Part shown: in pieces, positions 6,321-47,543 of the stretch
Layout of the letters: every line of letters starts with the position of its first letter
How positions within the stretch are numbered: the stretch's first letter is position 1
From: Bryobacterales bacterium
GTDB taxonomy: Bacteria; Acidobacteriota; Terriglobia; Bryobacterales; UBA6623
Assembly: GCA_965213745.1 (NCBI GenBank)
Contig: CBDBZZ010000025.1
Coordinates: 87,995 to 151,994, forward strand
Direction: 5' to 3'
Length of the DNA stretch: 64,000 nt
Made by a program: the position numbers and the translations under genes
Notes under the pieces: generated by a model
The model's database searches: none
The model's input: only the letters and a program-made list of their open reading frames with translations
Told to the model about the DNA's origin: nothing

Positions 6321-6608
6321 CCTGCAATTCTAAACCGCATACTCGGATGTGTCGCTACCGACAGGCTTTTTGCAAACACAGTTACGCACATCGACTGTCG
6401 GATCCGCGAGTCTTTCTGCGGAGAGCTGCCGCTCGCCGTGAGCAGATTGATGCACGGTTCGGGCGACAACTCGGAAGGAGCTGCTGATAGGCGAGATTCG
6501 CCTGCCCCGCAGGCGTGGTTCCGACGGTCGGCCCGGCGGAGGCACAGCCGGCGCACTGCCGTGGCGGTGCCGAAACTCGGTGGAATTGACGGGGCCGGCG
6601 GCTGGGAA

Positions 6609-7037: not shown

Positions 7038-7085
7038 TCAGGCTGGAACCTAAAACTTCCCGCAGGCGAATCGGCTGGAGGAACC

Positions 7086-10637: not shown

Positions 10638-12167
10638 GTGGCTACAATTCACCGAGGAGCACACGGAATGCTTAGGAACTCCCGCCGAATTTCACCTGCT
10701 TGGCTCGCTTGCTGCCTCGGGGCGACCGTCGTTTGCTGTGCCTTCGGCTCCGAGCGAAATCAGCGAGCCCCCAACATCGTCTTCATCCTGGCCGACGACC
10801 TCGGCTGGCGGGATACGGCTGTTTACGGCAGCCACTTCTACGAGACACCCAACATCGACGCCCTAGCTCGGCGAGGGATGCTCTTCACCAACGCCTACGC
10901 CGCTGCAGCTATCTGCTCCCCCACCAGAGCCAGCATCCTCACCGGCCTCCATCCCGCCCGGATCGGCATCACGACCGCCAGCGGCCATCTGCAGCGGGAG
11001 GTGCTGGCCAAGCAGCTCCGCCGCAAGGGCGCGAAGAACCAAGCGGCGTTGGTGGCCGATAGCGTCACGCGCCTGAAGCTCGAGTACTTCACGCTGGCCG
11101 AGGCGCTCCAAGGGGCGGGCTACCGCACAGGCCACTTCGGCAAGTGGCACCTCGGCCGCAAGCCCTACGACGCATTGCACCAGGGCTTCGACCTCGACCT
11201 GCCAGGCTTTCCCGGCCCCGGGCCGTCAGGCGGCTACCTCGGTCCGTGGTCGTTCTGGAACGGGCAGGGGCGGGCAGGCGAACACATCGAGGACCGCATG
11301 GCAGCGGAAGCCTCGAAGTTCATGCACGAGCACCGCGACCGCCCCTTCTTCCTCAACTACTGGGCCTTCTCGGTCCACGCTCCGATTCAAGGCAAGCCGG
11401 AGCTGGTCGACAAATACCGCGGAAAGGCCAACCCGGACCATCCCCAACGCAATCCGATCAACGGCGCGATGGTCGAGAGCCTGGACGACGCCGTCGGCAC
11501 ATTGGTCGCCACGCTCGACGAACTCGGCATCGCCGACGACACAATCATTGTCTTTTTCTCGGACAACGGTGGCATGGTCCACCGTTTCGACGGGGGCTCA
11601 GCCGTGACGAGCAACGCGCCGCTACGCAGCGGCAAGTCGTCGATCTACGAGGGTGGAGTTCGCGTACCGCTGATCGTCGTCTGGCCGGGAGTCACCGCCC
11701 CGGGCTCGCGTAGCGACGAGATCGTCCAGAGCATCGACTTCTACCCGACTCTCATTGAGATGACGGGCATACCTAGCGAGCAGCACCAAGAGATCGACGG
11801 CACGAGCATCGTGCCTGCCTTGCAGGGAGGCACAATCGACCGCGGAGCCGTCTTCGTCCATGCCCCGCACTACACGCCGGCCACACTGCATCGTCCCAGC
11901 ACATCGGTGCGGCAGGGCCGCTGGAAACTGATCCGGTTTTACTGCGACGGACCGCAGCAAGCGGATCGCTTTGAACTCTACGACCTTGAGCGCGACATCG
12001 GCGAGGAGCACGACCTGGCCGCTCGGGAACCCAGCGTCGTAGCAGGCCTGAAGCGACTCATCGCAGGCTTTCTCCAGGAAACCAGGGCGGTGATTCCGCA
12101 ACCCAACCCGGCCTATGAGGAGGGCTTGAGCCCGTTTCCTAACGGGCCCGCCCGCAAGGCTGGCTAA
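10638..12167 (+). CDS. formylglycine-dependent sulfatase (arylsulfatase A family)
   Basis: 509 aa with a signal peptide, PNIVFILADDLGW, and the active-site CSPTRASILTG (C-x-P-x-R). The true start may be the internal ATG at 10668 (MLRNSRRISPAW). Confidence 0.9.
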   Translation: MATIHRGAHGMLRNSRRISPAWLACCLGATVVCCAFGSERNQRAPNIVFILADDLGWRDTAVYGSHFYETPNIDALARRGMLFTNAYAAAAICSPTRASILTGLHPARIGITTASGHLQREVLAKQLRRKGAKNQAALVADSVTRLKLEYFTLAEALQGAGYRTGHFGKWHLGRKPYDALHQGFDLDLPGFPGPGPSGGYLGPWSFWNGQGRAGEHIEDRMAAEASKFMHEHRDRPFFLNYWAFSVHAPIQGKPELVDKYRGKANPDHPQRNPINGAMVESLDDAVGTLVATLDELGIADDTIIVFFSDNGGMVHRFDGGSAVTSNAPLRSGKSSIYEGGVRVPLIVVWPGVTAPGSRSDEIVQSIDFYPTLIEMTGIPSEQHQEIDGTSIVPALQGGTIDRGAVFVHAPHYTPATLHRPSTSVRQGRWKLIRFYCDGPQQADRFELYDLERDIGEEHDLAAREPSVVAGLKRLIAGFLQETRAVIPQPNPAYEEGLSPFPNGPARKAG

Positions 12168-16614: not shown

Positions 16615-17511
16615 CTAGACGGGGCTCTCCTCGCGGTCCAGTTTCCGGAAGGTTCCGCCTCCGCCGCAAAGTCCGGTGCTGTACTTCTCGTCATACGCTT
16701 CTCGCCTCTGTGGCAGGACGTAGCGCAGCGGTGCATAGGCAGCGAAATTCAGACAGCGGATTTCCGAATTGATTTCGTGGATCAGGGGAAACTCTCCCGC
16801 AAGATCGACATCCGGCTTCACGTTGATCAGCGTCAGGCACTCCGGGAAGCGGCTGGTCTCGCGATCTCCATATTGTTTTTGTGAATGATGGAGGGAATGG
16901 ACGATTGTGAGACGGTCGAGCAGCGTAAAATAATCGAAATTCAGCCTGTCGACGAGCCGGAACGGCGTACGCTCGGCCTCATCCAGTTCAAGCCAACGGT
17001 TGAACTGCTTCTGCGCCAATCGGGTCGTGCTGTCGATACTGGACAGGCCATAGCATGCCAGCGCCGTGTCGTCGACCTCGGTGGCGAAGGGCGCATCGAA
17101 CCACGCACCGAGGCGCTCGCATTCTTCGGGCATTTCGGGTGCCTGAATCAAGTTGAGCGGATTGCCCGGTACGAGACCGAGCCCGTCGGTGCTGAACGAA
17201 AATGACACCAGCAGGGCCTGCCCCGCGCCGCCATCGCTGTTACGCACCACAATCGCCCCCTGCGGAATCACCCGTCCCGCACGATGCCCAAACAGGTCGG
17301 GTTCGGCACCGTCCGCCGGCAGCAAGAGCCGCGCACCGGTCACTTGCCAAGTTTCCAGCAAGTTCCTCGAATGCAAAGAGCGACAGCGTTCGGGAAGCGA
17401 GGTCGACCCGGTTGCCGACCCTGAGCCAGGGGCGGACAATACTGATCGCGTCAAAAACCGTGCCCCTGGAATCCCTTTTTCGATTGATTTTTGAGTGAAT
17501 TTATTGTACAT
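16615..17511 (-). CDS. hypothetical protein, 298 aa, no recognisable motif
   Basis: Uninterrupted ORF with coding-like composition. It lies between the Mod tail and the IS630-A left end (17551). The N-terminal codons fall in AT-rich sequence, so the 5' end may have been reshaped by the IS. Confidence 0.5.
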   Translation of the reverse strand: MYNKFTQKSIEKGIPGARFLTRSVLSAPGSGSATGSTSLPERCRSLHSRNLLETWQVTGARLLLPADGAEPDLFGHRAGRVIPQGAIVVRNSDGGAGQALLVSFSFSTDGLGLVPGNPLNLIQAPEMPEECERLGAWFDAPFATEVDDTALACYGLSSIDSTTRLAQKQFNRWLELDEAERTPFRLVDRLNFDYFTLLDRLTIVHSLHHSQKQYGDRETSRFPECLTLINVKPDVDLAGEFPLIHEINSEIRCLNFAAYAPLRYVLPQRREAYDEKYSTGLCGGGGTFRKLDREESPV

Positions 17512-17550
17512 TATTAGTATGATAAAAAAAATTATTCTTTCTCCTATGCC

Positions 17551-18584
17551 TTACTGAAGACCAGAATTTCAAGGTCCGAAAAAACGTGGTCTTGCAGTTC
17601 ATGGGAAGAAAGTCAGTGGCCCAGATAAAGTCCTGCGTCTCTTGCTCCATACGCACGATCTATCGTTGGACCTCACGCTTCTGTCCAAGAGGCATGGAGA
17701 ACCTGCGGGATCGCCAAAGAACGGGACGACCGCGCCAAGGGACAGACCGGCACGTTGCTTGGATTCGCATCGTTGTCGGAGACCAAGACCCCGCTCAAGG
17801 CCCATGCGAGTTCGCTTGGCGGACCGCGCAGCGAGTGCGCCAAGCCTTGGGGGAGAAGTTCGGCAGCGTCTTGAGCGCCTCCCCGGTGCGCCGGATCCTG
17901 CGGCGGCTCCAGCTCCCGCCGCAGCGGCCCCAGCGGCGCGCTACCCAGTACGAGCCCGCTGACGTGCAGCGCTGGCAAGACCCAGAGTTTCCCAAGCTCC
18001 TACGCCGTGCCCGGGAGTGGGGAGCCCTGCTCGCCTGCGCCGACGAGTCCGGCCTGACTGCGCCGAGCGTGTACGAGCGCACCTGGGGCCTCTGCGGTCG
18101 GCCCCCCGTCGGGCGGGTGGCCAGCGGACGCTTCCGCCTCCACCGGCTGGCGGCCAGCAGCCCGGAGAGCCAGCTCGAGGACAGGGTGTGGGAAGGCCCT
18201 GTCACGGCGGAGGTCTTCCGGGAGTTCCTCCAGCAGCTCGCGGAGGAAGCAGACCGGAAGATCCTGGTAGCGGTCGACAATTGCAGGATGCACCGCGCCC
18301 GGACAATCCAGGAGTGGCTGGCGGCGGACCAAGCCGCAGCAGAGCTGTGTTGGCAGCCGGCCTACTCGCCGCAAGTCAATCCGGTGGAACTGCTAGGGGC
18401 CTTGGTCCAGCGGCGGGCCAGTCGCAAGCTGAGCAAGACCGCAGCACAGCTTCGCGACAACCTGGAAGCTGCTTGCCAGTCTTTGCCCGGAGTTCCGGAA
18501 CAGGTGCGGGCCTTCTTGCGAGAGGCAGACTGCCAGTCTATTCTTGCCTGTATTCTGAGGACACGCCTTTTGACGCGATCTGTA
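17551..18584 (+). mobile_element. IS630-family element (subtype A), apparently full length (1034 bp)
   Basis: Termini are TACTGAAGACCAGAATTTCAAGG (17551) and ...CCTTTTGACGCGATCTGTA (18584), with TA at both ends. It contains the only uninterrupted transposase ORF in the window. Confidence 0.75.
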
Positions 18585-19694: not shown

Positions 19695-20303
19695 CACGGC
19701 GTGCTTTGGTGATCGACCAACTCGGAGCGGCAGGAATTTGCGCCAGATCGCAACTGATTAAATCACTCAATATCTGGAAGGTAAATTACACGGTTTTTCT
19801 TCCAAGAAATGAGATCTATCTATGGATAAATATCCCTGCTAAAAGGAGTTTTACCGCAAGAAAATACCATGATCTCCTGGTGCTCTTGGAACTCTTCAAA
19901 GGCTTCTTCGCTTGATTCCGATGACACAAGATGTTGAACGGATTTGCAGGTTTGAGGGTTCAAGGCACGGGTTTCGGTTGTGCAGCAGCAGACAGGCACT
20001 TTTGTAGCTGCCGAGTCCGGTTGGTCCCGACACCACCGAGTTATCACCGACTTCTAGTTCGCGGCGTTCTGAGATCGACAATTGGCTGCCGCTTTCCTCG
20101 GCCATTGCAAGCTCCGGTGTTCGCGATGCGAACCACCAACGGTCCTGGGACCTAACCAAAAGACAGCGTCCGCCCCGCGCACGCCTGTGTCGACCAGCCA
20201 CAGCATCACCCCGCGGCGAATGCAGAACCAGTTCGAGCCAAAGCTTGCCTTGCGGAGGATTGCCGGCCCGCGGGGACCCTCAGCTACACTCATCAACGGA
20301 CCT

Positions 20304-22074
20304 ATGCTCCGTGCGTACCTTTCCATGATCGCGCTGCCTCTGCTCCTTGCACCAGCTCTGGCTGAGCAAACCAGCCGACCCAATATCGTCTTGATCGTGA
20401 CCGACGACCAAGGGTGGTGGGACCTTGGCATGCGCGGCAACGAGCACATCCACACTCCCAGCCTAGACCGGCTCGCCAGCGAAGGGGTCGAGCTGACGCG
20501 CTTCTATGTGGAGCCGGTCTGCGCCCCGACTCGCGCTGGGCTTATGACCGGCCGCCACTACCTCCGCACGGGCCTGTACAACACCCGCTTCGGAGGCGAC
20601 ACCCTCCACCTCGACGAAATCACGCTTGCGGAGGCTCTGCGGAACGCGGGTTACCGCACGGGCATGTTCGGCAAGTGGCACTTAGGCGAATACCGTCGAT
20701 TCCACCCCGAGCAGCGTGGATTCGACGAGGCACTGTTCTTCTCGGCGGGCCACACAGAAAGGTACTGGGAGCCCGACTTCCTCCTGCAGAGAGGCAGCCC
20801 TGTGCATGCCCGGGGCCATATCACCGACCTGCTCACCGATGCGGCGGAGACTTTCATCCGCACGCGGGGCAGCGGCCCGTTCTTTCTCTACCTGGCCTAC
20901 AACGTGCCGCACGCCCCGCTCTTCGTGTCCGACCAGCTGCACGAGAAGTACCCGCGCTCAGGGGCTCGATTCGCAGACCGCCAGAATCTACGGCCTGATC
21001 GAGCAATTGGACGCAGCGGTCGGACGCCTGCTGCGGACACTGGACGACGAAGGGCAGCACGAAAACTCGCTCGTGATCTTCATGAGCGACAACGGAGGCG
21101 TGAGCCGGCACTACAGAGCCGGCCTGCGGGGCGGCAAGGGTTCGGTCTACGAAGGCGGTGTGCGCTCACCCTTCTTCGCACGCTGGCCCGGCAAGTTCGA
21201 AGCCGGCCGCAAAACGGCGGCGCGGGCGACACATCTGGATTTGTTCCCGACTCTGGCAGAGATAGCCGAAGCGGAGACACCGAGCGACAGGGCTCTCGAC
21301 GGCCGCAGCCTGCTGCCGCTGCTCACCGGAGAGACCGACGAGAGCCCCCACCCGCGGCTGTTCCATATCTGGGATCGGCACAGGCCGAGCCTGAAGTCGC
21401 GGTGGGCGGTGGCTGGCCCTCGGTACAAGCTTGTGGGCGACGAGCTGTACGACCTCCGGAACGACTCCGGGGAGCAGCGCGACATCGCCGCCGAGGCACC
21501 GGACATAGCCGCCCAACTCAGGCGGGAGTTCACCGAGTGGCTTACGGACGTGACCGCTGGACAGACCTTCGAACCGCTGCCCATTCCCGTCGGGGACCCA
21601 CGGGAGAACCCTGTTGACCTGCTGCCGAGCTGGGCCCGCCACAAAGGCCGGCACGCGAGCGTGGTCCATCCGTATCACCGCGGGCCCACCGAGCCGGCAG
21701 CGCTCGGAGAGCAAGCGGCGGAAGACTCAACCGTCTACACCTTCGGCGCGTACTATTGGGACACCATCGAGGGGTGGCGGGAACCTGGCGAGACGGTTGC
21801 GTGGAAACTCGACATCGAGGCGTCCGGCACCTACGACATCACCCTGGTCTACGGCTGCGACCTCACGGATGCCGGAGGGGAGTACAGGGTGCGAGTGGGA
21901 GACCAAGCCATCGCGGGCAAGGTGCATCCAACAACGGGGCGAAGCTTTTTCGAGGCCCGCCGCATCGGCTCTGTGCGGCTGGGAGCGGGTCCGGCGGTGC
22001 TCCGGGTGGCAGTAGTCTCCGCATCAGGTCGGGACCTGATGGCCCTGAACCGCGTGCGGCTTGAACGGCGCTAG
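20304..22074 (+). pseudogene. sulfatase with C-terminal beta-sandwich-like extension, single frameshift
   Basis: Signal peptide, PNIVLIVTDDQGWWD, active-site CAPTRAGLMTG. The frame is lost at about 20950 (AAGTACCCGCGCTCAGGGG; removing one C restores ...HEKYRAQGLDSQTARIYGLIEQLD...). It resumes in ORF 20716-22074 (MSDNGG...GGKGSVYEGGVRSP). Confidence 0.8.
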
Positions 22075-22261
22075 GGCCGATCGCAGCACGGTCGGCTCGT
22101 ACAAATCACCCCGGTGCGGTCGAAAGCTAGGGCGTGTTCACGCCAATGCAGGGCATCGACGATGAGTGCGAAGAGGATGAATCCCCGGTCGCACGCCCAA
22201 GGCGCGAATCGCGTACTGACCGGACCAAAATCCGTGTCGACGAAATCCACTTTTCGCTTGT

Positions 22262-23305
22262 CATAATCGGTCCGTTTGAAGTACATTATTTGCATGGATA
22301 TTCGAACCATAATTTCCTTCCCAAGACTTTTAAAATACCAGCGGTATAAGGTCCGCAAAAAAGCGATTCTGTATCTCAGGGATGGAGAGAGCATTGCCGA
22401 AGCTGCGGCGAGGTTCTCCGCCGCAACACACATCTCGAAGCGCTGGACCGCCCGCTATGCTCTGGGTGGATGCGGGAATCTCCAGGATCGCCAGAGAACC
22501 GGCAGGCCGCGGCAGGGGACCGCCGAGCACGCCGACTGGACCTATGCCGCGGTGGTCGACAAACCCCCGCGCAGGGCCAGTTCGCGTGCGTGCTGGGGAC
22601 CGTGCAGCGGGGCCGCCGGGCCTGGCTGGACAGGGGCAGCCTCGCGCTCGGCCTCCGCCCGGGGCGGCGGAGCCTGCGGCGGCTCGGGCTCCTCCCGCAG
22701 CGGCCCCGGCGGCGGGCCTGCCGCTCCAGGCCCGGCAACGGACGGCGCTGGCAGGAGCGGGAGTTCCCCGCAAGCGCCCGGCGCGGACGAGTCCGGCCCC
22801 GCTTCCCGCTGCGTCCCGAGGCGGACCTGGGGAGGGCGGGGCCCACACGCGGTTCCGCCGGCCCAGGCGGGCCGCGAGCAGCCCGGACGGCGGGCTCCAC
22901 GCCACGGGGCCTGAGGGCCGGGCAACCGCCGGAACATGCCGGGGATTCCTGGAGCAGCTCGTCCGGGAGATTCCCCCGCAAGCGCTGCCGGTCGCGGACC
23001 GCGGCAGTCTGCCCGCGGCAGCCGCAATCCGGGAGTGGCTGGCGGAGAACGCGGCGGAGATCGAGCTCCTTCGTCAGCCGGCCTGCTCGCCGGAGGTGAA
23101 TCCTGCGGAACTGCCGCGGGCGTTGGTCCAGCGCAGGGCAAGTCGCTTGGGCCGCAAGACGCAAGCGCAGCCCCCCGCCAACTTGGAAGCCAACCTGGCA
23201 AACTTGGCAAGCGTCGCCGGAACGGGGGCGGTCGTTCCGGCGCGAAGCGGACTGCCGGTATATTCTCGCCGGCACTCTCGGGTTGCGGCTTTTGGCCCGG
23301 TCAGT
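22262..23305 (+). mobile_element. IS630-family element (subtype A-like), heavily degraded
   Basis: N-terminal HTH ...AILYLRDGESIAEAAARFSAATHISKRWTARY...NLQDRQRTGRPRQ. The C-terminal ...IREWLAENAAEIELLRQPACSPEVNPAE is in another frame. Right end GGCCCGGTCAGT resembles the subtype A terminus. Confidence 0.6.
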
Positions 23306-23519
23306 CCCGCCGCCGGGCCGCTGGGTGCCTGCCGGCCCCGGCTGGCAGTGGTCCGCCAGGGTTCGCCGCGGCGAGCTCCGCGCTCCGCCGGTGGGGGGCG
23401 GCTCGGGGAGCGGCCGGGGCGGGCTGCGGCGGGGGGCGGGGCAGCTAGCTGGACGTGACCCCCAGCGGTTCCCGGCCCCAGTTCGCCCGCCCCCAGGTGC
23501 CGACTGCAGCAGTGGCAGC

Positions 23520-23651
23520 CGCAGGGAGGGTCCCTTCCTGGCCTTTATTCCCTTCAGGGGCGCTCTGCCAGTTGAGGTGCTGTGCTTCGCGGGCAGTATC
23601 GGCGACATCGGCATCCGAGAAGATGCCTACGCTCCGTAGCGCGGACTCGCC
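23520..23651 (+). mobile_element. possible IS5-family right-end remnant
   Basis: Ends ...GGACTCGCC immediately before CTAG (23652-23655), like the half-site CACGCC-CTAG at 26203-26212. The frame ...CASRAVSATSASEKMPTL loosely resembles the fRriATRYeK tail of IS5 transposases. Weak. Confidence 0.3.
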
Positions 23652-23934
23652 CTAGGCGCGGTGGAGCGGGTGCAACTAGCTGGGACCCAAGGGCTTGCGG
23701 GCGCACCTGGCGCAGGCCGCCGCACGGGGTGCCGCGCTGCCTGCGCGGCTCAAGCCCGGGACGGGAAGGCTGGCCGGCGCGGCCCAGGCCCCCGCGCCGG
23801 CCCAGGCCTCGCGGCGAGCCCCCCGCTCGAACTGCCCGCCAACGCCCCCGGCCAGGCCTTGCCGAGCGCTCGCACCGAAGCCTCCCGGAGGCACGTTCGG
23901 AGCGGTCGGGCGCGGTTGGCTGTAGGATGCGGCC

Positions 23935-26074
23935 ATGCAGACCTCGGTTCTCAGTGTTGCGCTTGGAGCGGGAGCGGTCGCCGGCCTCGCGACGGGCCCG
24001 CCCGCCGGCCCCCGCCCAAGAAGCCCTTGCCTCGGCAGCGGCCACGACTCGCGACGCCCGCTCCCGCTCCCACACCCCGCTGCCCTTGGACCGCCAGGTC
24101 TCGGCAGCGGGGGTCCGGAACCGCGACGACCTCCGGGCGTTTGTCCGGACCGCCGCACAGTACGCCTTCGGAGCGACCTGGACTCCGGTGGCCCCGGCCC
24201 CGGCCCCGGACAGGGCGGAAGAGTTCGACAGGGTCCGGCGCGCTTTCCACGAGGACGCCCGCTGGAACCGCGGCCAGGTCCATATCTACGTGCATAGCAG
24301 CACGGTGCGCGGGGAGGATGCCAGAACCTTCGTCCACCCGCCGGAGAGTGCGCTGGAAGGCGGCTACCGGGGCCCCCTGATCGACCGGTTCGGCAACGAC
24401 TACTTCAAGGAAACCGAACGGATCGTCACGCAGTTCGGCGGCGGCTACGTGTACTACTCCGCGCCGAGCCCGCTGACGGGCGCCGACGAGCTGAAGGTCG
24501 GCTACGTCCTGCCCCTCGACTGGAACGGAACTCCGGCCGTCATCGGCGCCGGCCTGCACGAGCAGGATGTGCCGGGCGCGTGCTATCCCGGCGCAGTCAA
24601 CGCCCGGAGCTTGGCGGCCGACCCGACGCCGGACCGCTTGCAGGCGTTGGTGCGCTGCGCCGCCTATCGGGTCGGAGCCGGAGGCCTGCTCGCCGCGCGC
24701 GAGCTGGCACTCGATGCGCGCTGGAACGCCGGTGCAATCTACGCTTTCGGCAGCGACCTCGCGGGAGCGCAGGTGTATTCCGGCATCGCCCCCGAGAGGA
24801 ACGGTGAGCCGAGCGAAATCGGCGGCCCAGCGGCGAAGCTCGCCGGTCGGCAGGACGGGCTCGCGGTGGCGGCGGCGTTCGGGGAGTCCTTCCTCTACTA
24901 CGAGCACGAGAACCCCGAGACGGGTGCGCCCCAGCGCAAGGTCGCGTTCGTGAAACGGGTGCTGGCGCAGGGCGCACCGATTCTGGTCGGCTCCGGCTAC
25001 TACCTCGCAGACGGCGTGTCGGTTGCCGACGCCGGTCTGCCGGCGTGCGCGGACAGGGCGGTCGCGGCGAGCGCGATCAACACGCAGGAGGACCTCCAAG
25101 CCTTCGTGCTATGCGCGCGGGACGACGCGGCGCGGCACGGCGCGGAGGAGGCGGCTCAAGGGTTCAACTTCTCCCCGTATTGGAGGTCCCGGCCTTAGTA
25201 CCTGTATGTGAGTCGGCTCCCCTGGTCCGGCCTCTCGGATCCTATCCCCTTGTTCGACACCCGCCTCGCGGTTGTCTGGCAGGACCCGGCAAGCCGCTCG
25301 GTCGATCCGCTCCTGGAGCTCTTCAAAATCGACCTCGTCGAGGAGTTCGGCCGCTCCTTCTTTTCCGAGGAAGCCCGCCTCGCACGGGATTTCGGCGGAG
25401 GCTGGATCTATTCCGCCGGCCGGACCGAGTACAAGGCGTGGCGCACCGCGGTGATCGACGACTGGGACGGAGCGCCCGCGGTGATCGGGGCGGCCATCGC
25501 TCCTCGCCACCTGCCCGGAAACTGCGCTCCGGGGCAGGTCAACGCGGGATTGGTCGCAGCCGCAGCGAGTCCCGAACTCCTGATGGATTTCGTGCGGTGC
25601 GCCGCGCACCGGATCGCGGGGGACGGCTATTCCGCGATCCCCGCACTGACGAGCGATCCGCGATGGAGCAGCGGATCGGTGTACGTCTTCGCAATGGACC
25701 GCTCGGGCATCCAGGTTTTCTCCGGCAATCCCGTCCGGGTCAACGGCAGCCAGTTGCAGGAGTGGGGCGATCCCCTGGCACCGTCCGGGCCGTTTCGCGG
25801 GAGGGACGTGATCAGCGCGGCGGACGCCTTCGGGGAGTCCTTCCTGTACTACAACGCCTTCAACCCGGAAACCGCTCGGACCCAGCGGAAGGTGGCGTTC
25901 TTGAAGCGCGTCGCGGCTCAGGGAGTTCCCGTGCTGATCGGAGCGGGGTACTACCTTGCGGACGGAGACGACCCGAACCACGGGCGAAGCGATTTCGGGC
26001 GCGTCGGTGACAGCTACTGGCCGCTCCAGGGATCGGCCGGCGGGAACGCTTCGAGGGCCAGTTCGTCCCATTGA
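23935..26074 (+). pseudogene. secreted four-module sCache_2-like protein, decayed paralogue
   Basis: Paralogue of 26852-28744. The signal peptide MQTSVLSVALGAGAVAGLATGP is in a different frame from the body: there is a 1-nt insertion near 23995 and an extra ~70-nt insert. TAG at 25196-25198 and a scrambled start of module 3 follow. Modules 3-4 continue in ORF 25208-26074. Confidence 0.8.
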
Positions 26075-26194
26075 GGGGAAACGGCACCCGGGCAGACGCC
26101 GCGCCGTCACGCAGAGCCGGAATGCGAGCCGATCCCGCTGACGGGAGGACGGATGACTAGCGATCCTCTACGGACCGGGACATCGTTTCGCTAG

Positions 26195-26208
26195 GGCGTG
26201 GACACGCC
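26195..26208. repeat. 14-bp palindrome GGCGTGGACACGCC flanked on both sides by CTAG
   Basis: The sequence CTAG-GGCGTGGACACGCC-CTAG (26191-26212) sits exactly at the junction of the two duplicated units. Its left half matches the IS5-like terminus AGCGTGCCCACAC at 28950. Confidence 0.7.
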
Positions 26209-26299
26209 CTAGGCGAGGTGGAGCGGGTGCAGCTAGCTGGAGCAAAGGGGCCTCAGGGCGCAACTGGCGCAGGCCGCTGCGCGGAGCGCCGTGCTGTCT

Positions 26300-26480
26300 T
26301 CAACTGCTCAAGCACGTGACTGGAATGTTGGCCGTTGTGGGCGATCCGCCCGTGGCCCCGGACAACAGCGCCGCCGAGCGGGCCGTGAGGGCCCGGTGAT
26401 CGCGCGCGCCACACCAGATCTGGAGCGAGCGGCGCGGCCGACACCGAACTGACCGGACTGCTGCACACGGTCTACGGCAC
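26300..26480 (+). pseudogene. transposase C-terminal remnant (IS66-like)
   Basis: ...LLKHVTGMLAVVGDPPVAPDNSAAERAVRAR* then, frame-shifted, ..SGASGAADTELTGLLHTVYG. The P.DNN.AER.lR..v motif is characteristic of IS66-type transposase C-termini. Confidence 0.4.
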
Positions 26481-26851
26481 TCCACCCCAGCAGGCCCCGC
26501 CCCCTACACTTGGTCGCAGGCCTCTCGCGAGGCCTGTGGCCGCCACGGCGGCCAGTCGCCGTGCCTGAACCGGTGGCTGCTTTGGACGCTTGACGCCGCA
26601 CGCCAGCAGGCGCTGGCCCGCTGGCCAGGCAGCTTGCCCACACGGCTCACCGCAAGCCCGCCAGCGCCTCTCTCGGATCCCCCGGCAGCGCCCCTCGCTG
26701 GCGCGGCCTAGGTCCCCCGCGCCTGTCCAGGCCTCGCGACTATCCACCCACTCGGCCTGCCATCCTTGCCGATAGGCTTGCACCGGAGCATCCTGGAGGC
26801 CCCGGAGGCGCGTTCGGAGCGGTCGGTCGCGGTTGGCTGTAAGATGTAGCC

Positions 26852-28744
26852 ATGAAGACTTCGGTTCTCAGTATTGCGCTTGGGGTGGGAGCGGTCGCCA
26901 GTATCGCGACGGGCCCGTCCTTGGTCCACGCCCAAGAAGCCCTTGTCTCGGCAGCGGGAATCCGGAATCGCGATGACATCCAGGCGTTTGTCCATGCCGC
27001 CCGCCAGTACGCACTGGCAAACGGGTTCGAAGAGGCCCGGCGCGCTTTCAACGAGGACGCACGCTGGAACAGCGGCCAGTTCTATGTATTCGTGGACGGC
27101 AACACGGTGCGCGGGGAGGATTCCAGAACATTCGTCTACCCGCCGGAGAATTCGCTGGAAGGCGGCTACTGGGGCCCGCTGATCGACCGGTTCGGCAACG
27201 ACTACTTCAAGGAAACCGAACGGATCGCCACGCACTTCGGCGGCGGCTACGTGTACTACTCCGTGCTGAACCCACTGACGGGCGCCGACGAACTGAAGGC
27301 CGGCTATGTCCTGCCCATCGACTGGGACGGAACTCCGGCCGTCATCGGTGCCGGCATTTACGAGCAGGATGTGCCGGGCGCGTGCTACCCCGACACAGTC
27401 AACGCACGGAGCTTGGCGACGGATCCGACGCCGGATCGCTTGCAAGCGTTGGTGCGCTGCGCCGCCTATCTGGTCGAAGCCAGAGGCTTTTTTGCCATGA
27501 ACGCACTGGTGCTCGATTCTCGCTGGAACGACGGTTCAATCTACGCTTTCGGCAGCGATCTCGCGGGAGCGCAGGTGTATTCCGGCATCGCCCCCGAGAG
27601 GAACGGTGAACCGAGCGAAATCGGTGACCTAGCGGAGAAGTTCCTCGGTCGGGACGTGCTCGCGGTGACAGCGGCGTTCGGTGAATCCTTCCTCTACTAC
27701 GAGCACGAGAACCCCGAGACGGGTGCGACCCAGCGCAAGGTCGCGTTCGTGAAACGGGTGCTGGCGCAGGGCGTACCGATTCTAGTCGGCTCTGGCTACT
27801 ACCTCGCAGACGGCGTGTCGGTTGCCGACGCCGGTCTGCCGGCGTGCGCGGACAAGTCGGTCTCGGCGAGCGCGATCAACACGCAAGAGGATATCCAAGC
27901 ATTCGTGCTATGCGCACGAGACTACGCGGCACGGCATGGCGCGGAGGAGGCAGCTCGATCGTTTCGCGATGACCCACATTGGAAGTCCGGGCCCTATTAC
28001 CTGTATGTGAATCGGATCCCCGAGCCCGGTGCCGAGACATTCACCCTCGTGCATGTCCTCCGGGAGCGGGAAGGCCTCTCGTTCGGTCCGCTCTTGGATG
28101 TCTTCAACAACGACTTCTTTCTTGAGGAAGCCCGCCTCGCACGGGATTTCGGCGGAGGCTGGATCTACTACTCCTTCTTGAATCCGGCTTCCGGCCGGGC
28201 CGAGTATAAGGCGTCGTACAACGCGGTGATCGACGACTGGGACGGAGCGCCTGCGGTGATTGGGGCGGGCATTTATCCTCACCACCTGCTCGGAAACTGC
28301 GATCCGGAGCAGGTCAACGCGACATTGGTCGCATCCGAAGCGAAACCCGAGTTCCTGGTGGAGTTCGTGCGATGCGCCGCACACCAGCTCGAGGGGAACG
28401 GCTATTTCGCGACTCCCGAACTGACGGGCGATCCGCGATGGAGCAGCGGATCGGTGTACATCTTCGCAATGGATAGCTCGGGCATCCAGGCTTTTTCCGG
28501 CAATCCCGTCCGGGTGAACGGAAGACAGTTGCAGGAGTGGAGCGATCCCCTGTCACCGTCCGGGCCGTTTCGCGGAAGGGACGTGATCAGCGCGGCGGAC
28601 GCATTCGGAGAATCCTTCCTTTACTACAACGCCTTCAATCCGGAAACCGCTCGGACACAGCGGAAGGTGTCGTTCTTGAAGCGCGTCACTGCTCAGGGAG
28701 TTCCCATCCTGATCGGATCGGGGTACTACCTTCCGGACAAATAG
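26852..28744 (+). CDS. secreted protein of four tandem sCache_2-like modules (A-B-A-B), no TM or output domain
   Basis: 630 aa with signal peptide MKTSVLSIALGVGAVASIATGPSLVHAQE. Each ~150-aa module ends in a Cache-type strand pattern: GGGYVYYSVLNPLTGADELKAGYVLPIDWDGTPAVIGAGIY; FGESFLYYEHENPETGATQRKVAFVKRVLAQGVPILVGSGYY; GGGWIYYSFLNPASGRAEYKASYNAVIDDWDGAPAVIGAGIY; FGESFLYYNAFNPETARTQRKVSFLKRVTAQGVPILIGSGYY. Confidence 0.8.
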   Translation: MKTSVLSIALGVGAVASIATGPSLVHAQEALVSAAGIRNRDDIQAFVHAARQYALANGFEEARRAFNEDARWNSGQFYVFVDGNTVRGEDSRTFVYPPENSLEGGYWGPLIDRFGNDYFKETERIATHFGGGYVYYSVLNPLTGADELKAGYVLPIDWDGTPAVIGAGIYEQDVPGACYPDTVNARSLATDPTPDRLQALVRCAAYLVEARGFFAMNALVLDSRWNDGSIYAFGSDLAGAQVYSGIAPERNGEPSEIGDLAEKFLGRDVLAVTAAFGESFLYYEHENPETGATQRKVAFVKRVLAQGVPILVGSGYYLADGVSVADAGLPACADKSVSASAINTQEDIQAFVLCARDYAARHGAEEAARSFRDDPHWKSGPYYLYVNRIPEPGAETFTLVHVLREREGLSFGPLLDVFNNDFFLEEARLARDFGGGWIYYSFLNPASGRAEYKASYNAVIDDWDGAPAVIGAGIYPHHLLGNCDPEQVNATLVASEAKPEFLVEFVRCAAHQLEGNGYFATPELTGDPRWSSGSVYIFAMDSSGIQAFSGNPVRVNGRQLQEWSDPLSPSGPFRGRDVISAADAFGESFLYYNAFNPETARTQRKVSFLKRVTAQGVPILIGSGYYLPDK

Positions 28745-28949
28745 TCCACGGGCGACTCGATTTCGCGGACTTCCGGCCGACCTAGGGCCGGCCGGCGGGG
28801 ACGGTTCGATGGCAAGTTCGTCCAATTGACGGGAAACGGCACCCGGGCAGACGCGGCGCCAGTCACGCAGAGCCGGAATGCGGGCCGACCCGCTGGCGGG
28901 AGGGCGGACGCCTAGCGATCCTCTACGGACCGGGACATCGTTTCCCTAG

Positions 28950-29440
28950 AGCGTGCCCACACTACTGCGCATGGTCATATTCTCAACTGCGGATGCAACT
29001 CACGAAGCACAGCACGAACGCATTGCACCGTACCTTGCGGTGCAGCGTGGCAATGTCCGGGGGGCGAACCCGCCAGTGCTCAACGCCATGCTGTATGTGG
29101 TCGAACATGGCTGCAAATGGCGCGGCTTCCCGAATCGGTTTGGCAAATGGCGCACCATCTACCTGCGGATGCATCGCTGGTCGCAGAATGGCGTGCTGGA
29201 CCGGGTCTTCGAACAGTTGCAACGAGAGCAGATCGTGCGGATCAAGCTGGAAGCGGTGTCGCGGGACAGCACCATGGTCCAGCGGCATCCCGACGGGACG
29301 GGGGCGCTCAAAGAACGGCCCGCAATCCATCGGCCGCTCCCGCAGCGGTTGGACCACCGAGTTGCATAAGGTCGCCGCGGATGTGCGCGCCACCATCCCG
29401 TTCTCGCTCTCACCGGTTCAGGCCCACGACGCACCGGAAG
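28950..29440 (+). mobile_element. IS5-family (IS427/IS5-group-like) element, left half only
   Basis: Starts after CTAG (28946-28949) with AGCGTGCCCACAC. The ORF gives ...NPPVLNAMLYVVEHGCKWRGFPNRFGKWRTIYLRMHRWSQNGVLDRVF (DUF4096-type N-domain). A second frame gives ...KNGPQSIGRSRSGWTTELHKVAAD...SLSPVQAHDAPE. It is then cut off. Confidence 0.7.
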
Positions 29441-29442
29441 AT

Positions 29443-29882
29443 GGGATCGTGTCGGACCCGTTCTGCGGGTGTGCCACGGCCTGTATTGCGGCGCAGCGGC
29501 TACATCGTCAGGGGGTCGGGACCGCTATCAGCCCGCAGGCGGCTAAGCTTGTGCGCCAGCGGATGCGGGACGAACTCCGGCTGTTCCACCACGGGGCGCA
29601 TAGGCCCAAGATACCGGCGCGTACGGACGTGGGACGGCTCCCGCGCTGCAACCGCCGGGAGAACTGGACGCTGCTCTACGGGGAGCAAGGGGGCCCTGCG
29701 CGGGTTGTGCGGCGCACTTCGCACCGCGCCGCCTGGAGGTAGACCGCATCATCGCACGGGCGAAGGGCGGCACCGACCATCTGAGTAACCTGCAACTCCT
29801 CCGGGGAGCGTGCAACCGGCAGAAGGGCGAGCGGGGCATGGACTACTTGTGGAGCAAGCTCCGGCTCGGGGCCGCAGCGTGA
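29443..29882 (+). pseudogene. DNA methyltransferase C-terminus fused to degenerate HNH nuclease domain (remnant, frameshifted)
   Basis: IVSDPFCGCATACIAAQRLHRQGVGTAISPQAAKLVRQR is the motif-I-like DPF.GsGTT..AA..l.R..iG.e block. After a frameshift comes LYGEQGG / CAGCGAHFAPRRLEVDRIIARAKGGTDHLSNLQLLRGACNRQKG. This is an HNH pattern in which the first His is replaced (DRII for DHII). Confidence 0.55.
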
Positions 29883-37778: not shown

Positions 37779-38835
37779 TACTGATTTTGCCATAAGTCAT
37801 TGCAAGGAACAACCAGAAACAGTCTAGGCGCAGTCGGCCTCGCGGAAGAACCCCTGCACCTTGGTGGGGTCGGCCTCCAGGGCTCGCAGGGCCTCCTCCC
37901 AGCGCTCCCGGAGCTAGCGGACTGTCCGGACCAGCAGCTTCCCCACCCGGCGCTGGACGACCGACCGGACTTGCTCCGCAGGGTTCAATTCCGGAGAGTA
38001 CGCCGGCAACAGATGAATCTCCACCGGTGCCTCGGTCCGCTCCTTCCAGGCTTCTAGAGGCTTGGATGTGTGGATGCTGTGGCGGTCCACTAGCACGTGA
38101 ATCGGTCTAGCCTCCGTCCGGTCCGGAATCTGCTGCAGGAACTGTTCCAACGTGGCTGCGGTGGCGGTTCCGGCATGGATCCTGGAATAAATTGCTCCCG
38201 CGGGGCTGCTCGCGGAGAGCCTGTTCAGCCGGAACCGCTCCCCCGTTGGCTGGACGACAGGCGTCCGGCCCCGGGGACCCCACGGAGTGCCCCGGTGGGA
38301 GTGCGAGGTCCTGCCGGCCTCGTCGGCCCAGAGCAGCAGGGCTCCCTGCTCCTGCGCGCGCTGGACGAGGGCGGGGTAGGTGACTGCGATCCCAGTCCGC
38401 ACCGCGTCGGCGTTCTGCTGGGAGGACCGGAACTGAGGGCGCTGCGGAGTGAGGCCGAGACGCCGCAGGACCCTGCGCACCGTCGACAGGGACAGTTTGA
38501 CTGGGAACTGGTCGAGGATCCCTGGCCGGACAATTTTCAGCGCCCGGTAGGCGAACTCGAACTGGAGCTGATCGGGGGATTTGTCCCGCAGAGTTGCGAG
38601 GATCAGCTGCATTGGGTCGGGGGAGAGGCAGGGAGGGCGTCCCGGTTTGGGTTGATGTCCGAGAGCCTGGAATCCACAGCAGGCATAGAGACAAATCCAG
38701 GTGCGGATTGTGCGGATGCCGATACCGAATTCCTTGGCCAGGGCTTGGATGGATTTGCCGTGGCGAGCTTGGATCACGACCAGCTTCCTAAGGGGAGGTC
38801 GGGACCGATGGGGAATGCGTCGGAATTCACGAAAT
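37779..38835 (-). mobile_element. IS630-family element (subtype B), copy 1, 5'-truncated, transposase with in-frame TAG
   Basis: Outer terminus TACTGATTTTGCCATAAGTCATTGCAAGG (37779). Transposase reads ...RKLVVIQARHGKSIQALAKEFGIGIRTIRTW...LLWADEAGR...VDRHSIHTSKPLEAW...LPAYSPELNPAE...VRTVR*LRERW. TAG 37914-37916 corresponds to CAG 41477-41479 in copy 2. Homology to copy 2 ends at about 38835. Confidence 0.75.
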
Positions 38836-39494
38836 TCTGGAAGTCGCACGCCAGCATCACCCGCGGCGCGGGCGCCTCCTCCCCCGCCGCACGGGGCACC
38901 GCGGCTAGGCCGAGCCGCTCCAGCTGCGGCACGAGGCCCTGCCAGAGTTCGGCCGCCAGGCCCGGATCGATCGGCTTGTGCATGCACAGCAGCGGTGCCC
39001 GCCCCAAGCCTGCACCCAGTAGCTCGCCGCCGCCGGCAGCGCCAGGCGCTCCCGCGAGACGCAGGGCCGGGCCCAGTGGCCTTGCCCGCTGTAGGTCTGG
39101 ACATGCCCGTCGCCCAGCAAGGTGGCGGTCAGGCCGGGCTCCTCGGCGGCCCCAGCCTCCGGCAGCGCCCCGAGCTAGGCCTGCACGGCAGCCGCGTCGG
39201 CGGTCAGTTGGCGCAGCTTGCGCCGCAGCGTGGGGGCGGTGGCCTGCAGCTGTTCCGGGTTGCGGACCCGCGCCAGCAGCAGGAGCACGGAGCGCAGGCG
39301 GTCGGCGTGCTGCAGCAGGGCCGGCACGGCCGTCAACACGCCGCCGTGCCGCACGCCCCGCGCCGGGACGAAGCTCGGCTCCCGTTCGCCCAGCCCGCCC
39401 AGGCTCGCCGCCACGTTTATAATAAATAGCTGGATGCCTAGGACGCGGGATTCCGGCCGTAATCGTATCAGCGAACGCGCCAAGCGGGAACAGC

Positions 39495-40259: not shown

Positions 40260-40390
40260 AAAAGCCGTGCTGTGAGACCCTAGTATCCTCCTTGAGCGAG
40301 CGCAGATCATTCAGAATTAGCCAAGACTCTCGCGGTAACGTACACCCGGTTGGTAACATGCATCCGGTTCAAGATACCATCCACGGCAGT

Positions 40391-41615
40391 TACTGGTTTT
40401 GCCAAAAGTAATTGCAGGTCTGGCCGTTTTCAACCTCTCAGTAGCTCTCCGCATCGACACGCACATAAACTGGTCTATAGATGTTTTTATCTGAGACATT
40501 ACCGCATGGAATCTCCCTGTGATTCCTGCTCTTATCAATTCGTGAAGTTTCTAACATTTCCCGACTTCCTACGCATTCCCCATCGGTCCCGACCTCCCAT
40601 TAGGAAGCTGGTCGTGATCCAAGCCCGCCACGGCCAAGCTCTCCAAGCCTTGGCCCAGGAATTCGGCATCGGCATCCGCACAATCCGCACCTGGCTTTGG
40701 CTCTATGCCTGCTATGGATTCCAGGCTCTCGGACATCAACCCAAGCCGGGACGCCCTCCCTACCTCTCCCACGACCAAACGCAGATAATCCTCGCAACTC
40801 TGCGGGACAAATCCCCCGACCAGCTCCAGTTCGAGTTCGCCTACCGGTCGCTGCAAATTGTCCGGCAATGGATCCTCGACCAGTTCCCAGTCCAACTGTC
40901 CCTGTCGACGGTGCGCAGGGTCCTGCGGCGTCTCGGCCTCACCCTGCAGCGCCCTAAGTTCCGGGCCTCCCGGCAGAACGCCGCCGCGGTGCGGACTGGG
41001 AGCGCAGCAACCTACCCCGCCCTCGCCCAGCGTGCGCAGGAGCAGGGAGCCCTGCTGCTCTGGGCCGACGAGGCCGGCAGGACCTCGCACTCCCCCCGGG
41101 GCACTCCGTGGGACCCCCGGGGCCGGACGCCTGTCCTCCAGCCCACGGGGGAGCGGTTCCCGGCTGCACAGGCTCTCCGCGAGCAGCCCCTCGGGAGCAA
41201 TTTATTCCAGGATCCATGCCGGAACCGCCACCGCAGACACGTTGGAACAGTTCCTGCAGCAGATTCCGGACCAGACGGAGGCTAGACCGATTCACGTGCT
41301 AGTGGACCGCCACAGCATCCACACATCCAAGCATCTAGAAGCCTGGCAGAAGCGGACCGAGGGGCCGGTGGAGATGCATCTATGGCCGGCGTGCTCTCCG
41401 GCATGGAACCCTGCGGAGCCAGTCCGGTCGGGAGTTCCAGCGCCGGGTGGGGAAGCTGCTGGTCCGGACGGTTCGCCAGCTCAGGGAGCGCTGGGAGCAG
41501 GCTCTGCGAGCCCTGGAGGCCGACCCCACCAAGGTGCCAGGGTTCTTCCGCGAGGCCGCCTTGCGCCTAGACTGTTGCTGGTCGCACTCTGCAAGGACTT
41601 ATGGCAAAGTCAGTA
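40391..41615 (+). mobile_element. IS630-family element (subtype B), copy 2, both termini present (1225 bp), transposase with two frameshifts
   Basis: Termini TACTGGTTTTGCCAAAAGTAATTGCAGG (40391) and ...GCAAGGACTTATGGCAAAGTCAGTA (41615). The transposase is spread over ORFs 40350-41285, 40858-41616 and 41447-41641. Confidence 0.8.
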
Positions 41616-41759
41616 ATTCCCTTAGCGTGAACACGCCCTAGGCAGGGCGACGCCTGGGACCACCAATCTTCTCTCGCAGGCGCGCAGTGCGGAGGTGCTG
41701 CGACGGGCGGCACGTGTATCTACGACGCCATCCGCATCGCTGCCGGTCCTCCCGGAGCA

Positions 41760-43699: not shown

Positions 43700-43945
43700 G
43701 CGGGTTGTGGTAAACACACGGAGTGATGTCGGCCTCTGCCGCCCAAGGTAGTAGTTGTGCGACGGGCCGCACGCCAGAGCTTGGTAACCCTTGAGAAGCT
43801 CCAGCGCGTAGCACTCCTCAAGCGAGTACAGGCCCTTCCGTCCAAACCCTCTGCTGTGGAGGATCAGCGTCGTCGGCAAGCGGGCTGTCCGGCCGATTCC
43901 GTCGTAGTACGGATGAATCGTCGCGAACTGCTTCGGACACCCTCA
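43700..43945 (-). pseudogene. Fic-domain remnant
   Basis: [61 protein letters not shown]. Fic core motif with N->I ([12 protein letters not shown]). It is fused without a gap to the DUF1501 remnant. Confidence 0.55.
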
Positions 43946-43954
43946 GCAGTACAA

Positions 43955-44331
43955 GTTCGCATACGCACTGGGGACTGCCCAGACTGTGCGGATGGCTTGT
44001 TGGCAGAAATTCCACGTGTGCCTCAGCGTGTGGACCGTACGCCGGATTTTGCGGCTGCTGGGACTAACTCCGCAGCGGCCGAAGCCGGCGCACCGGGCGG
44101 CACTGTCCGGAGCAAGTGCAGCGTTGGAAGAAGAGGATTTCCTCGGCTGTCGAGACGGGCCCAGGAGTTAGGGGCCACTCTTCTGTTTGTAGACCAGTCG
44201 GGCATCGACTCCCAAAGCGTGCAGGGTCAGATGTGGGGCGTGAGGGGGCGCACACCCGCGGTGCGTGTGGCACAGGCGCGGTTTCGGTGGAACCTGCTGG
44301 CCGTGATCAGTCCGGACGGTCAGCTGTATGC
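43955..44331 (+). pseudogene. IS630-family transposase internal fragment
   Basis: YKFAYALGTAQTVRMACWQKFHVCLSVWTVRRILRLLGLTPQRP... / ...AQELGATLLFVDQSGIDSQSVQGQMWGVRGRTPAVRVAQARFRWNLLAVISPDGQLYA, in two frames. It ends where the solo terminal repeat begins. Confidence 0.6.
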
Positions 44332-44365
44332 TACTAATTTTCTCAAAAGTAATTGCAAGCAACCC
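44332..44365 (+). repeat. solo IS630-type terminal repeat
   Basis: TACTAATTTTCTCAAAAGTAATTGCAAGCAACCC is the inverse of the MITE right end GGTTTGCTTGCAATTACTTTTGGCAAAATTAGTA. Confidence 0.7.
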
Positions 44366-44505
44366 ACCCCTCGGCGGCCAGCAGCGCAAGGCGCACTCGG
44401 AACACCTCGCCGGAGGCGGGAGCGGACTCGCACGCACCGTACGTCGCAGAGCGGCGAGCTCCGCGGCCCGGACCTCCATGGAAGGGGCGCGGCGCATGCC
44501 ATAAT

Positions 44506-44599
44506 TACTGATGTTTTCATAAGTAATTGCACGAAAAGGCTCCGCAAGCCATTGATTCTATTGGTGGTTTGCTTGCAATTACTTTTGGCAAAATTAGTA
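44506..44599 (+). mobile_element. 94-bp IS630-derived MITE, copy A
   Basis: TACTGATGTTTTCATAAGTAATTGCACGAAAAGG...GGTTTGCTTGCAATTACTTTTGGCAAAATTAGTA. The imperfect terminal inverted repeats share the TACTnAT..TTT.C.A.AAGTAATTGCA core. TA is present at both ends. Near-identical to 52646-52739. Confidence 0.8.
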
Positions 44600-44621
44600 T
44601 ATTTAATTGCATGATATTACA

Positions 44622-47418: not shown

Positions 47419-47543
47419 GACCCTCCCAGGATAGAACGACCTCGGCCATCTCCCGGGGGATTGACCCGGTTGAGGCCGGCCAACCGTAGCGATGTCTCTG
47501 CCCGGGACCCTCACCGCTGTTTCGGTGGGATATCGCACCACAC

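Follow-up and report, generated by a model that had tools for sequence, protein, structure and literature searches.

Insertion sequences (IS) of the IS427 group, among them IS1248, ISPpa2 and ISPaes1 of Paracoccus, are 832-865 bp long, have inverted repeats (IRs) of 13-21 bp and two overlapping open reading frames (ORFs), and give 2-bp direct repeats (DR); a member of the group is capable of replicative transposition (PMC3281130). Broken copies of an IS5-family element resembling this group border a tandem duplication of about 2.6 kb, with a secreted four-module Cache gene in it, in a 64,000-nt stretch of a Bryobacterales genome (assembly GCA_965213745.1, contig CBDBZZ010000025.1, positions 87,995 to 151,994). 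This stretch is referred to as the window, and positions are those of the window unless another contig is named. The elements are like the IS427 group in their two ORFs, short IRs, 2-bp DR and size of ~0.8-0.9 kb, whereas the copies in the window are only remnants (the left 490 nt, the left ~75 nt, the right ~84 nt, a 20-nt stub and a 16-nt scar). The copy to the right of the duplication and its full-length relatives are placed in the IS5 family as resembling the IS427 group, the subgroup being read from architecture and not from a curated match. Remnants of IS427-group elements, and tandem duplications mediated by microhomology or by IS ends, are event types already known.

Duplications with short junctions are known in Salmonella, and precise or nearly precise excision of Tn10 and Tn5 is a host-mediated deletion between short repeats within inverted IS ends that does not depend on transposase. 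Nearly precise excision of the Tn10/Tn5 kind would likewise leave a short palindromic remnant of the ends between target duplications, here of 16 bp; a literature search found excision of this kind undocumented for IS5-family elements. Arrays of the form IS-gene-IS-gene-IS, made by direct-repeat recombination, are alike in that every unit boundary is an IS terminus beside the target dinucleotide, but the flanking copies are inverted here and the junction holds no IS body. Composite transposons of the Tn5/Tn10 type also carry a passenger between two inverted copies of one IS type, whereas here both arms are inactivated and the right one lacks its outer end. Microhomology-mediated tandem duplication is reported to be the main way in which tandem duplications arise in organisms of all kinds (bioRxiv 10.64898/2026.02.28.708716); it is alike in having one short repeat at the boundaries and the junction, with the junction flanks taken from opposite outer boundaries. 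Unlike in typical cases, the microhomology here would come from inverted mobile-element termini and a near-palindromic core is needed, and the unit is longer (2.6 kb).

Extent and divergence of the tandem units

To compare the units, window positions 23400-26260 were aligned with 26150-29100 by BLASTN, and the whole window was analyzed by repeat search and self-BLAST. Five collinear segments were obtained (unit 1 / unit 2): 23639-23776 / 26196-26334 (80.7% identity), 23770-24041 / 26694-26957 (79.6%), 24098-24165 / 26945-27012 (84.1%), 24223-25222 / 27025-28021 (88.2%, E = 0) and 25357-26200 / 28114-28955 (85.1%, E = 0). The whole-window searches recovered the same pairs, and no third copy of the unit was present in the self-comparison. 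Two homologous units therefore lie head to tail, as a preliminary description made from the DNA letters had proposed, and the upstream and tail strings quoted in that description were found in both. The coding sequences (CDS) of the two units are 86.5% identical, as against 87.5% for the 3' tails and 83.7% for the promoter-proximal 5' parts. This is a genuine, old tandem segmental duplication of ~2.6 kb that comprises the promoter, the secreted four-module Cache gene and the 3' tail.

CTAG occurs at 23652-23655, 26191-26194, 26209-26212 and 28946-28949, and limited by these sites unit 1 spans 23656-26190 (2535 nt) and unit 2 spans 26213-28945 (2733 nt). The pairwise alignment agrees with unit boundaries at the CTAG sites, where they had been expected, and homology between units ends at IS termini at all three boundaries. 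When the TA dinucleotides are taken as limits (23653-23654 at the left boundary of unit 1, 26192-26193 and 26210-26211 to the left and right of the junction scar, and 28947-28948 at the right boundary of unit 2), the forward-strand units run from 23655 to 26191 and from 26212 to 28946.

Divergence by deletion as well as by substitution had also been proposed, and it was confirmed by a 359-nt segment that is absent from unit 1, together with further indels. The segment (26335-26693, forward strand) is seen in unit 2 only, the neighboring alignments overlapping by 7 nt in unit 1; its edges carry a short TGGC(C)G repeat, and its absence from unit 1 is probably due to a microhomology deletion. The IS66-like transposase fragment reported there at ~26300-26480 was not supported, as 26335-26693 gave no Pfam match at E ≤ 10 and no transposase match in NCBIfam, and tblastn against 72,556 plasmids returned only chance matches to unrelated genes (E ≥ 1). 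A motif near both unit starts, GCAGCTAGCTGGA at 26232-26244 and GCAACTAGCTGGG in unit 1 at 23675-23687, occurs once more as GCAGCTAGCTGGA at 23443-23455. This last site was considered as a third copy of the unit start and rejected, the local alignment not being significant (z ~2.4), and is probably a chance occurrence.

Insertion sequence remnants at the outer boundaries

To the right of unit 2, positions 28949-29440 (forward strand) hold the left ~490 nt of an IS427-like member of the IS5 family (IS_B; Pfam, NCBIfam and alignment to the relative L001). Left ends of this kind read TA-GGGCGTGTTCAC..., and the left inverted repeat (IRL) of IS_B is GAGCGTGCCCACAC. The element has a 1-nt deletion near the start. 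Its first ORF, OrfA, matched Pfam DUF4096 (E = 2.8e-18) and NCBIfam transpos_IS5_3 (E = 1.6e-24, below the cut-off of that model since the protein is partial). The closest homologues with recoverable DNA lay in four full-length elements of 805-815 bp (L001, 814 bp; L122; L123; L124). In these, OrfA (DUF4096) precedes OrfB (DDE_Tnp_1), which is read in a different frame (downstream DDE part in L001, L122 and L123), and their IRs are 17-19 bp long, beginning GGGCGTGTTCACAC or GGGCCTGTTAAC. Window positions 28960-29440 were 77.6% identical to nt 13-494 of the L001 element, and the first 60 nt were collinear with the L001 left end. OrfA was 69% identical by tblastn; its closest homologues were 75% identical. 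An IS5-like left end had been placed directly after CTAG 28946-28949, and the element does start exactly there, aligning from its first bases with the left end of a full-length relative.

The DDE part is absent from IS_B, which is cut off at ~29440. The rest of the element is replaced at 29441-29882 (forward strand) by fragments of a DNA methylase C-terminus (N6_N4_Mtase, E = 7e-5) and of an HNH nuclease (HNH, E = 3.7e-9), which look like debris of a restriction-modification or homing-type gene.

To the left of unit 1 the remnants lie in several pieces. Approximately the last 84 nt of an element of the same kind occupy 22130-22213 on the reverse strand (IS_A), with C-TA at 22127-22129 as outer flank. 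The last 57 nt of L001 (IS nt 761-817) matched window 22184-22128 at 82.5% identity (E = 9e-11), and amino acids 77-104 of OrfB matched 22229-22149, where the terminus GGCGTGAACACGCCC-TA comes after the peptide ...GFILFALIVDAL. A decayed IS630-family element (copy C, 22216-23304, forward strand; Pfam DDE_3, E = 1.6e-6; NCBIfam transpos_IS630, E = 4.9e-6) interrupts IS_A at a TA. It has the IRs CTGACCGGACCAAAA and CTGACCGGGCCAAAA, and its DNA is similar to that of copy B at 17442-18566. Between the right end of copy C and the next remnant lie ~270 nt of GC-rich filler (23305-23576), which showed no similarity to the full-length IS and no Pfam match.

Immediately before unit 1, ~75 nt (23577-23652, reverse strand) form a second remnant, IS_A prime, with its terminus facing the unit. 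The reverse complement of 23577-23655 was aligned with 28946-29015, CTAG inward, and 54/70 nt (77%) were identical (score 30 vs. 16.5 ± 2.4 for shuffled sequences, z = 5.6). Taken as a right end, the remnant aligned over no more than its 17 terminal nt (z = 1.6), the part next to unit 1 that resembles an IS terminus. The peptide GIFSDADVADTAREAQH of this remnant resembles VIFSTADATHEAQH. Termini cannot tell left from right, but the interior of a remnant can, and IS_A prime is therefore an inverted left end. The right-end remnant that had been proposed before unit 1 is thus replaced by an inverted left end, and the real right end is the one at 22130-22213. From these alignments the left neighbor is an inverted, broken copy of the same IS type, so placed that both flanking left ends face the units.

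Target duplication and junction scar

Termini were read from outside to inside and tabulated for the window and the relatives. The pattern was TA, then GGG(C/T), then (G/C)TGTT(C/A)AC; the IRL of L001 is CTGTTAGC, and the termini of the window, L122 and L124 read GGGCGTG.../...CACGCCC. The flanks of the four relatives were CTAG/CTAG twice, TTAG/CTAG and CTAG/CTAA. Because two of these pairs are mismatched, only a duplication of TA, with element ends G...C, explains them. The duplicated target is accordingly TA, within YTAR, and each CTAG at an IS end is part target and part element. CTAG had been described as a duplicated 4-bp target, whereas its inner G and C come from the element. Two misreadings are thereby corrected: the target is TA rather than CTAG, and a left end of an IS cannot be told from a right end by its terminal repeats alone.

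At the junction between units lies a 16-bp scar, GGGC-GTGGACAC-GCCC (26194-26209). The 22-mer around it, CTAGGGCGTGGACACGCCCTAG at 26191-26212, is a palindrome that was found once in the window vs. 0 expected (100 shuffles). The scar is made up of positions 1-12 of one terminus and, reverse-complemented, positions 1-4 of another, so that the two overlap on positions 5-12. In the terminus pattern TA-GGGC-GTGTTCAC-..., the core GTGTTCAC is its own reverse complement except for the central two bases, so that any two ends, whatever their orientation, share GTGNNCAC as a direct repeat. The 8-bp core was found at three sites, as GCGGACTC at the left boundary, GTGGACAC at the junction and GTGCCCAC at the right boundary, and the degeneracy between sites is in line with the 12-20% divergence of the units. 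From left to right, the junction has C-TA-GGGC, which it shares with the right boundary, followed by the core and by GCCC-TA-G, which it shares with the left boundary; it contains no extra DNA. The scar is also 13/14 identical to the right terminus of IS_A (22130-22145).

The junction 14-mer had been proposed to be IS-terminal sequence, and it matches the termini of the window, L122 and L124 (GGGCGTG.../...CACGCCC). The fuller proposal of two IS termini back to back between target copies stands as to terminal composition, but the termini are overlapped on the 8-bp core and are flanked by TA. The unit junction holds no complete or hybrid IS, its IS sequence being limited to 16 bp from the termini. 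Neither a promoter nor a terminator was called at 26191-26212, where there is also no T-run.

Other origins of the scar were considered. A miniature inverted-repeat transposable element (MITE) does not fit, as the scar keeps only 12 + 4 nt of IRs of 17-19 bp and occurs once in the window. A palindrome that existed beforehand as a target for IS insertion does not fit, since the full-length relatives have this sequence as part of the element. A Tc1/IS630-style excision footprint was rejected as the main reading, since footprints of staggered-cut transposases are shorter than 8 nt per end; the neighboring IS630 copies have unrelated termini.

Cache-array genes

Unit 2 carries an intact gene (26852-28744, forward strand) for a 630-aa secreted protein with four Cache-like modules and without a membrane or output domain. 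The protein matched Pfam dCache_2 (E = 9e-24, 84.5 bits vs. a gathering cut-off of 26.5) and sCache_2 (E = 8e-23, 81.4 bits vs. 25). Its N-terminus is signal-peptide-like, and sequence motifs and internal DNA repeats gave four modules in an ABAB pattern. A four-Cache-module gene had been described in each unit. This is the case in unit 2, but the unit 1 copy, which also matches Cache (its pieces at 24-30 bits, around the Pfam cut-offs), is broken. In the unit 1 pseudogene (23935-26074, forward strand), a +1 frameshift (1-nt indel) near 24004, after the signal peptide, puts this peptide and the mature part in different frames. A TAG stands in frame at 25196-25198, in place of the TAT of unit 2; the conserved YSFLNP motif is lost; and the C-terminus is altered by an indel of 7 nt near 25967.

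Nei-Gojobori comparison of the two genes gave a synonymous divergence (dS) of 0.19 and a non-synonymous divergence (dN) of 0.13 (dN/dS = 0.70). The dN to outgroup g1 was 0.308 for unit 1 and 0.189 for unit 2, an excess of non-synonymous change on the unit 1 branch. Non-coding divergence matches synonymous divergence, and therefore the whole unit is taken to have been copied once and to have drifted afterwards, with no homogenizing conversion of the CDS. The uniform 80-88% identity of coding and non-coding DNA, together with dS of 0.19, fits one old segmental event followed by near-neutral decay. Selection did not keep both copies; unit 1 gained a frameshift, a stop codon and deletions.

The Cache protein family comprised 402 homologues at E ≤ 1e-10, in a four-module form (~630 aa) and longer forms (~980 aa). 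Several were labelled Acidobacteriia or Bryobacterales, and the closest sequences were only 75% identical at the protein level. The family is apparently secreted, with four or more modules and without a membrane anchor or output domain, and is common in metagenome-assembled genomes (MAGs) carrying those labels. Contig L002, from a related metagenome, has its own tandem pair of 632-aa Cache-array genes (2476-4374 and 4599-6497); their 86% identity is confined to the CDS (dS = 0.46, dN/dS = 0.20), and the pair is without IS ends. Contig L003 has a single gene (6001-7899). The dS between the window gene and those of L002 and L003 was >1, and the gene contexts on both contigs were non-syntenic with the window. 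A dS above 1 to the closest relatives makes the window duplication lineage-specific. Tandem duplication of the Cache-array gene nevertheless seems recurrent and, judging by the L002 pair, can be retained under selection.

Duplication model and alternatives

In the proposed history, a single unit would at first have been bordered by two IS427-like elements inserted at TA sites and inverted relative to each other, so that each turned its left end towards the unit. Ends placed in this way carry the same 8-bp GTGNNCAC, directly repeated to the left and right of the unit, and unequal exchange or a replication slip between sister chromosomes at this microhomology would duplicate the DNA in between; nicking of both inside ends by transposase may have assisted. 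In the product, the junction would owe C-TA-GGGC to the right-hand element and GCCC-TA-G to the left-hand one, with the shared core in the middle, which equals the scar at 26194-26209. The signature of a microhomology duplication is present at the locus, with the same short sequence at both boundaries and the junction and with the flanks swapped. All the IS copies have decayed, one being split by the IS630-family insertion and one truncated by the methylase/HNH debris. A one-step, microhomology-mediated duplication between inward-facing ends was favored because one event suffices and the inverted orientation fits. Its probability was estimated at about 0.5, and the single step is the part that we infer.

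Several points weigh against this history. The microhomology is only 8 bp and is imperfect in the present sequence, and a segment of ~2.6 kb is long for replication-slippage-type events. Moreover, 14-16 bases cannot separate a one-step junction from a collapsed central IS, and the 13/14 match of the scar to the right terminus at 22130-22145 is compatible with an origin from a whole IS. IS_B has lost its right side, which leaves the ancestral arrangement only partly reconstructable. A single-unit state was not found in related genomes, where the closest homologues are 75% identical and non-syntenic. Finally, the tandem structure is read from the assembly.

Collapse of a central IS was the preliminary proposal, in the form of an IS-unit-IS-unit-IS amplification. 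Its tandem duplication and its IS termini at the boundaries hold, but the flanks are inverted and a whole central IS is not required, given that the 8-bp core shared by any two termini yields the same 16-bp product in one step. In a revised form, a full IS427-like copy would have lain between the units, or two copies tail to tail as in a repeated IS(-)-unit-IS(+) composite, and slippage between the GTGNNCAC cores of the outermost termini, a process akin to nearly precise excision and favored by a hairpin or long palindrome, would have deleted the interior and left a 16-bp, TA-flanked scar. A TA-scar-TA arrangement is indeed what an IS site should look like after interior deletion, the 13/14 identity to the IS_A right terminus agrees with it, and the other truncated termini of the window (22130-22213, 41623-41642) are evidence that decay to stubs happens. 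Also in its favor are the replicative transposition of which an IS427-group member is capable (PMC3281130) and the presence of the 22-bp CTAG...CTAG palindrome in four unrelated genomes among 118 half-pattern matches (~0.5-1 expected). At least two events are needed, however, and each version has its own difficulty: the left remnant is inverted, which disagrees with homologous recombination between flanking IS copies in direct orientation, while a tail-to-tail origin calls for the whole composite to have been duplicated in tandem or re-inserted next to itself, for which there is no explanation. Such scars are also not common, as only 1/121 metagenome copies of the 16-nt palindrome was TA-flanked. 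Collapse of a central IS was thus judged less likely than the one-step history.

Arrival of the second, diverged Cache unit on an IS-flanked composite transposon, inserted at a TA beside the resident paralogue with the scar as leftover IS ends, was judged unlikely. Inverted IS copies around a passenger are the architecture of a composite transposon, the Cache gene occurs in non-syntenic contexts in L002 and L003, and insertion beside an existing IS end is plausible because IS boundaries recreate YTAR targets. Against this, the non-coding flanks are as similar as the coding part (80-88%), dS is 0.19 between units vs. >1 to any other known sequence, the window holds no third copy of the unit, and the outer ends cannot be checked. 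It is very improbable that the 22-bp palindrome is an ordinary hairpin unrelated to IS, for example a terminator-like stem, or that the tandem arrangement is an assembly artefact. Palindromes do tend to extend (13% of flanking dinucleotide pairs complementary vs. 6% expected in a metagenome sample), and the same palindrome lies between long convergent ORFs in three other genomes; but each half of the scar matches the IS termini of the window and of the full-length relatives base for base, TA flanks included, and 26191-26212 has neither a T-run nor a terminator call. Collapse or expansion of a repeat in assembly would not give units that differ by 12-20%, by many indels and in gene integrity.

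Under the one-step history, the locus would be a natural record of how a gene can be duplicated between breakpoints placed by the ends, and not the body, of a small IS, the 16-bp scar indicating which sequences recombined. The wider consequences appear local: one copy of the Cache gene decayed, and the region is one of many IS-ridden stretches in the genome.

Recurrence of the scar

The terminal 12 nt (GGGC + GTGTTCAC) may make any two ends recombination-competent, and TA-GGGCGTGNNCACGCCC-TA would then be a general scar of this IS lineage, an extension that we regard as doubtful. If true, TA-GGGCGTGNNCACGCCC-TA would mark nearly precise loss of an IS as well as IS-end-guided duplications or deletions of neighboring genes, and such scars could reveal past IS activity in genomes that are now without elements. 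The scar, if a recurrent product, would thus be a useful marker of vanished IS copies.

A genome collection was scanned for GGCGTGNNCACGCCCTAG (half of the pattern plus CTAG). The 118 loci obtained were mostly chance or unrelated repeats, including a conserved site specific to Comamonadaceae and a repeat in a Nannocystaceae MAG; when the IS proteins were searched against these loci by tblastn, no full IS turned up. Four of the 118 carried the full CTAG...CTAG palindrome (<1 expected). These identical copies of CTAG-GGCGTGNNCACGCC-CTAG lie in unrelated genomes (L091, 6115-6136; L113, 2181-2202; L117, 5794-5815; L032, 4306-4327). In the first three, the palindrome occupies exactly the interval of two long convergent ORFs, each of which has the TAG of one CTAG as its stop codon; the palindromes may be scars left by an IS where insertion is tolerated, or they may be hairpin terminators. 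Short sequences in L007 and L008 are possibly similar right-end remnants, as judged by eye only. In the metagenome sample, the single TA-flanked copy of the 16-nt palindrome (1/121) stands beside a twofold general tendency of palindromes to extend, and scans of the viral collection found none of the scar patterns. Support for recurrence of the scar as a general product is weak.

Window context

From its annotation the window reads as an IS graveyard, a decayed, transposon-littered and pseudogene-rich region. Scans of the window gave no tRNA genes and no Rfam match. IS630-family elements of a first type were present in three copies: A at ~2415-3191 (reverse strand), B at 17442-18566 (forward) and C at 22216-23304 (forward). 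Copy B is complete-looking, with a 349-aa ORF (DDE_3, E = 1.5e-22), TA flanks and IRs CTGATCGCGTCAAAA, while copy A is partial and inverted. A second IS630 type forms an inverted pair, 37779-39104 (reverse) and 40350-41615 (forward), 92% identical over 1.06 kb. An isolated IS427-like terminal stub of ~20 nt, TTAGCGTGAACACGCCC-TA, was identified from the terminus table at 41623-41642 (forward strand). The right-hand copy of the second IS630 type ends at a TA 7 nt from this stub and was apparently inserted into another IS427-like copy, which it destroyed.

Directly upstream of the IS cluster at unit 1, the overlapping ORFs 20082-21617 and 20716-22074 match the N- and C-terminal halves of Sulfatase and are probably a frameshifted pseudogene; an intact sulfatase lies at 10638-12167. 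A 1.25-kb repeat was found at 53029-54304 and 57096-58344 (88.5% identical), with a partial copy at 54833-55147. One ORF of this repeat has a weak DDE_Tnp_1_4 match (E = 1e-5), and the repeat is probably another decayed IS family. Its end segment of ~107 nt occurs at 53028, 54834 and 57096 and also at 2296-2403, where an IS630 copy lies beside it. A 97-nt direct repeat (92%; 44505-44601 and 52645-52741) brackets two large genes, 44617-47541 and 48583-52236 (TonB-dependent-type outer-membrane protein), and an IS630-like ORF at 43757-44611 (DDE_3, E = 4.5e-5) adjoins the left copy of this repeat.

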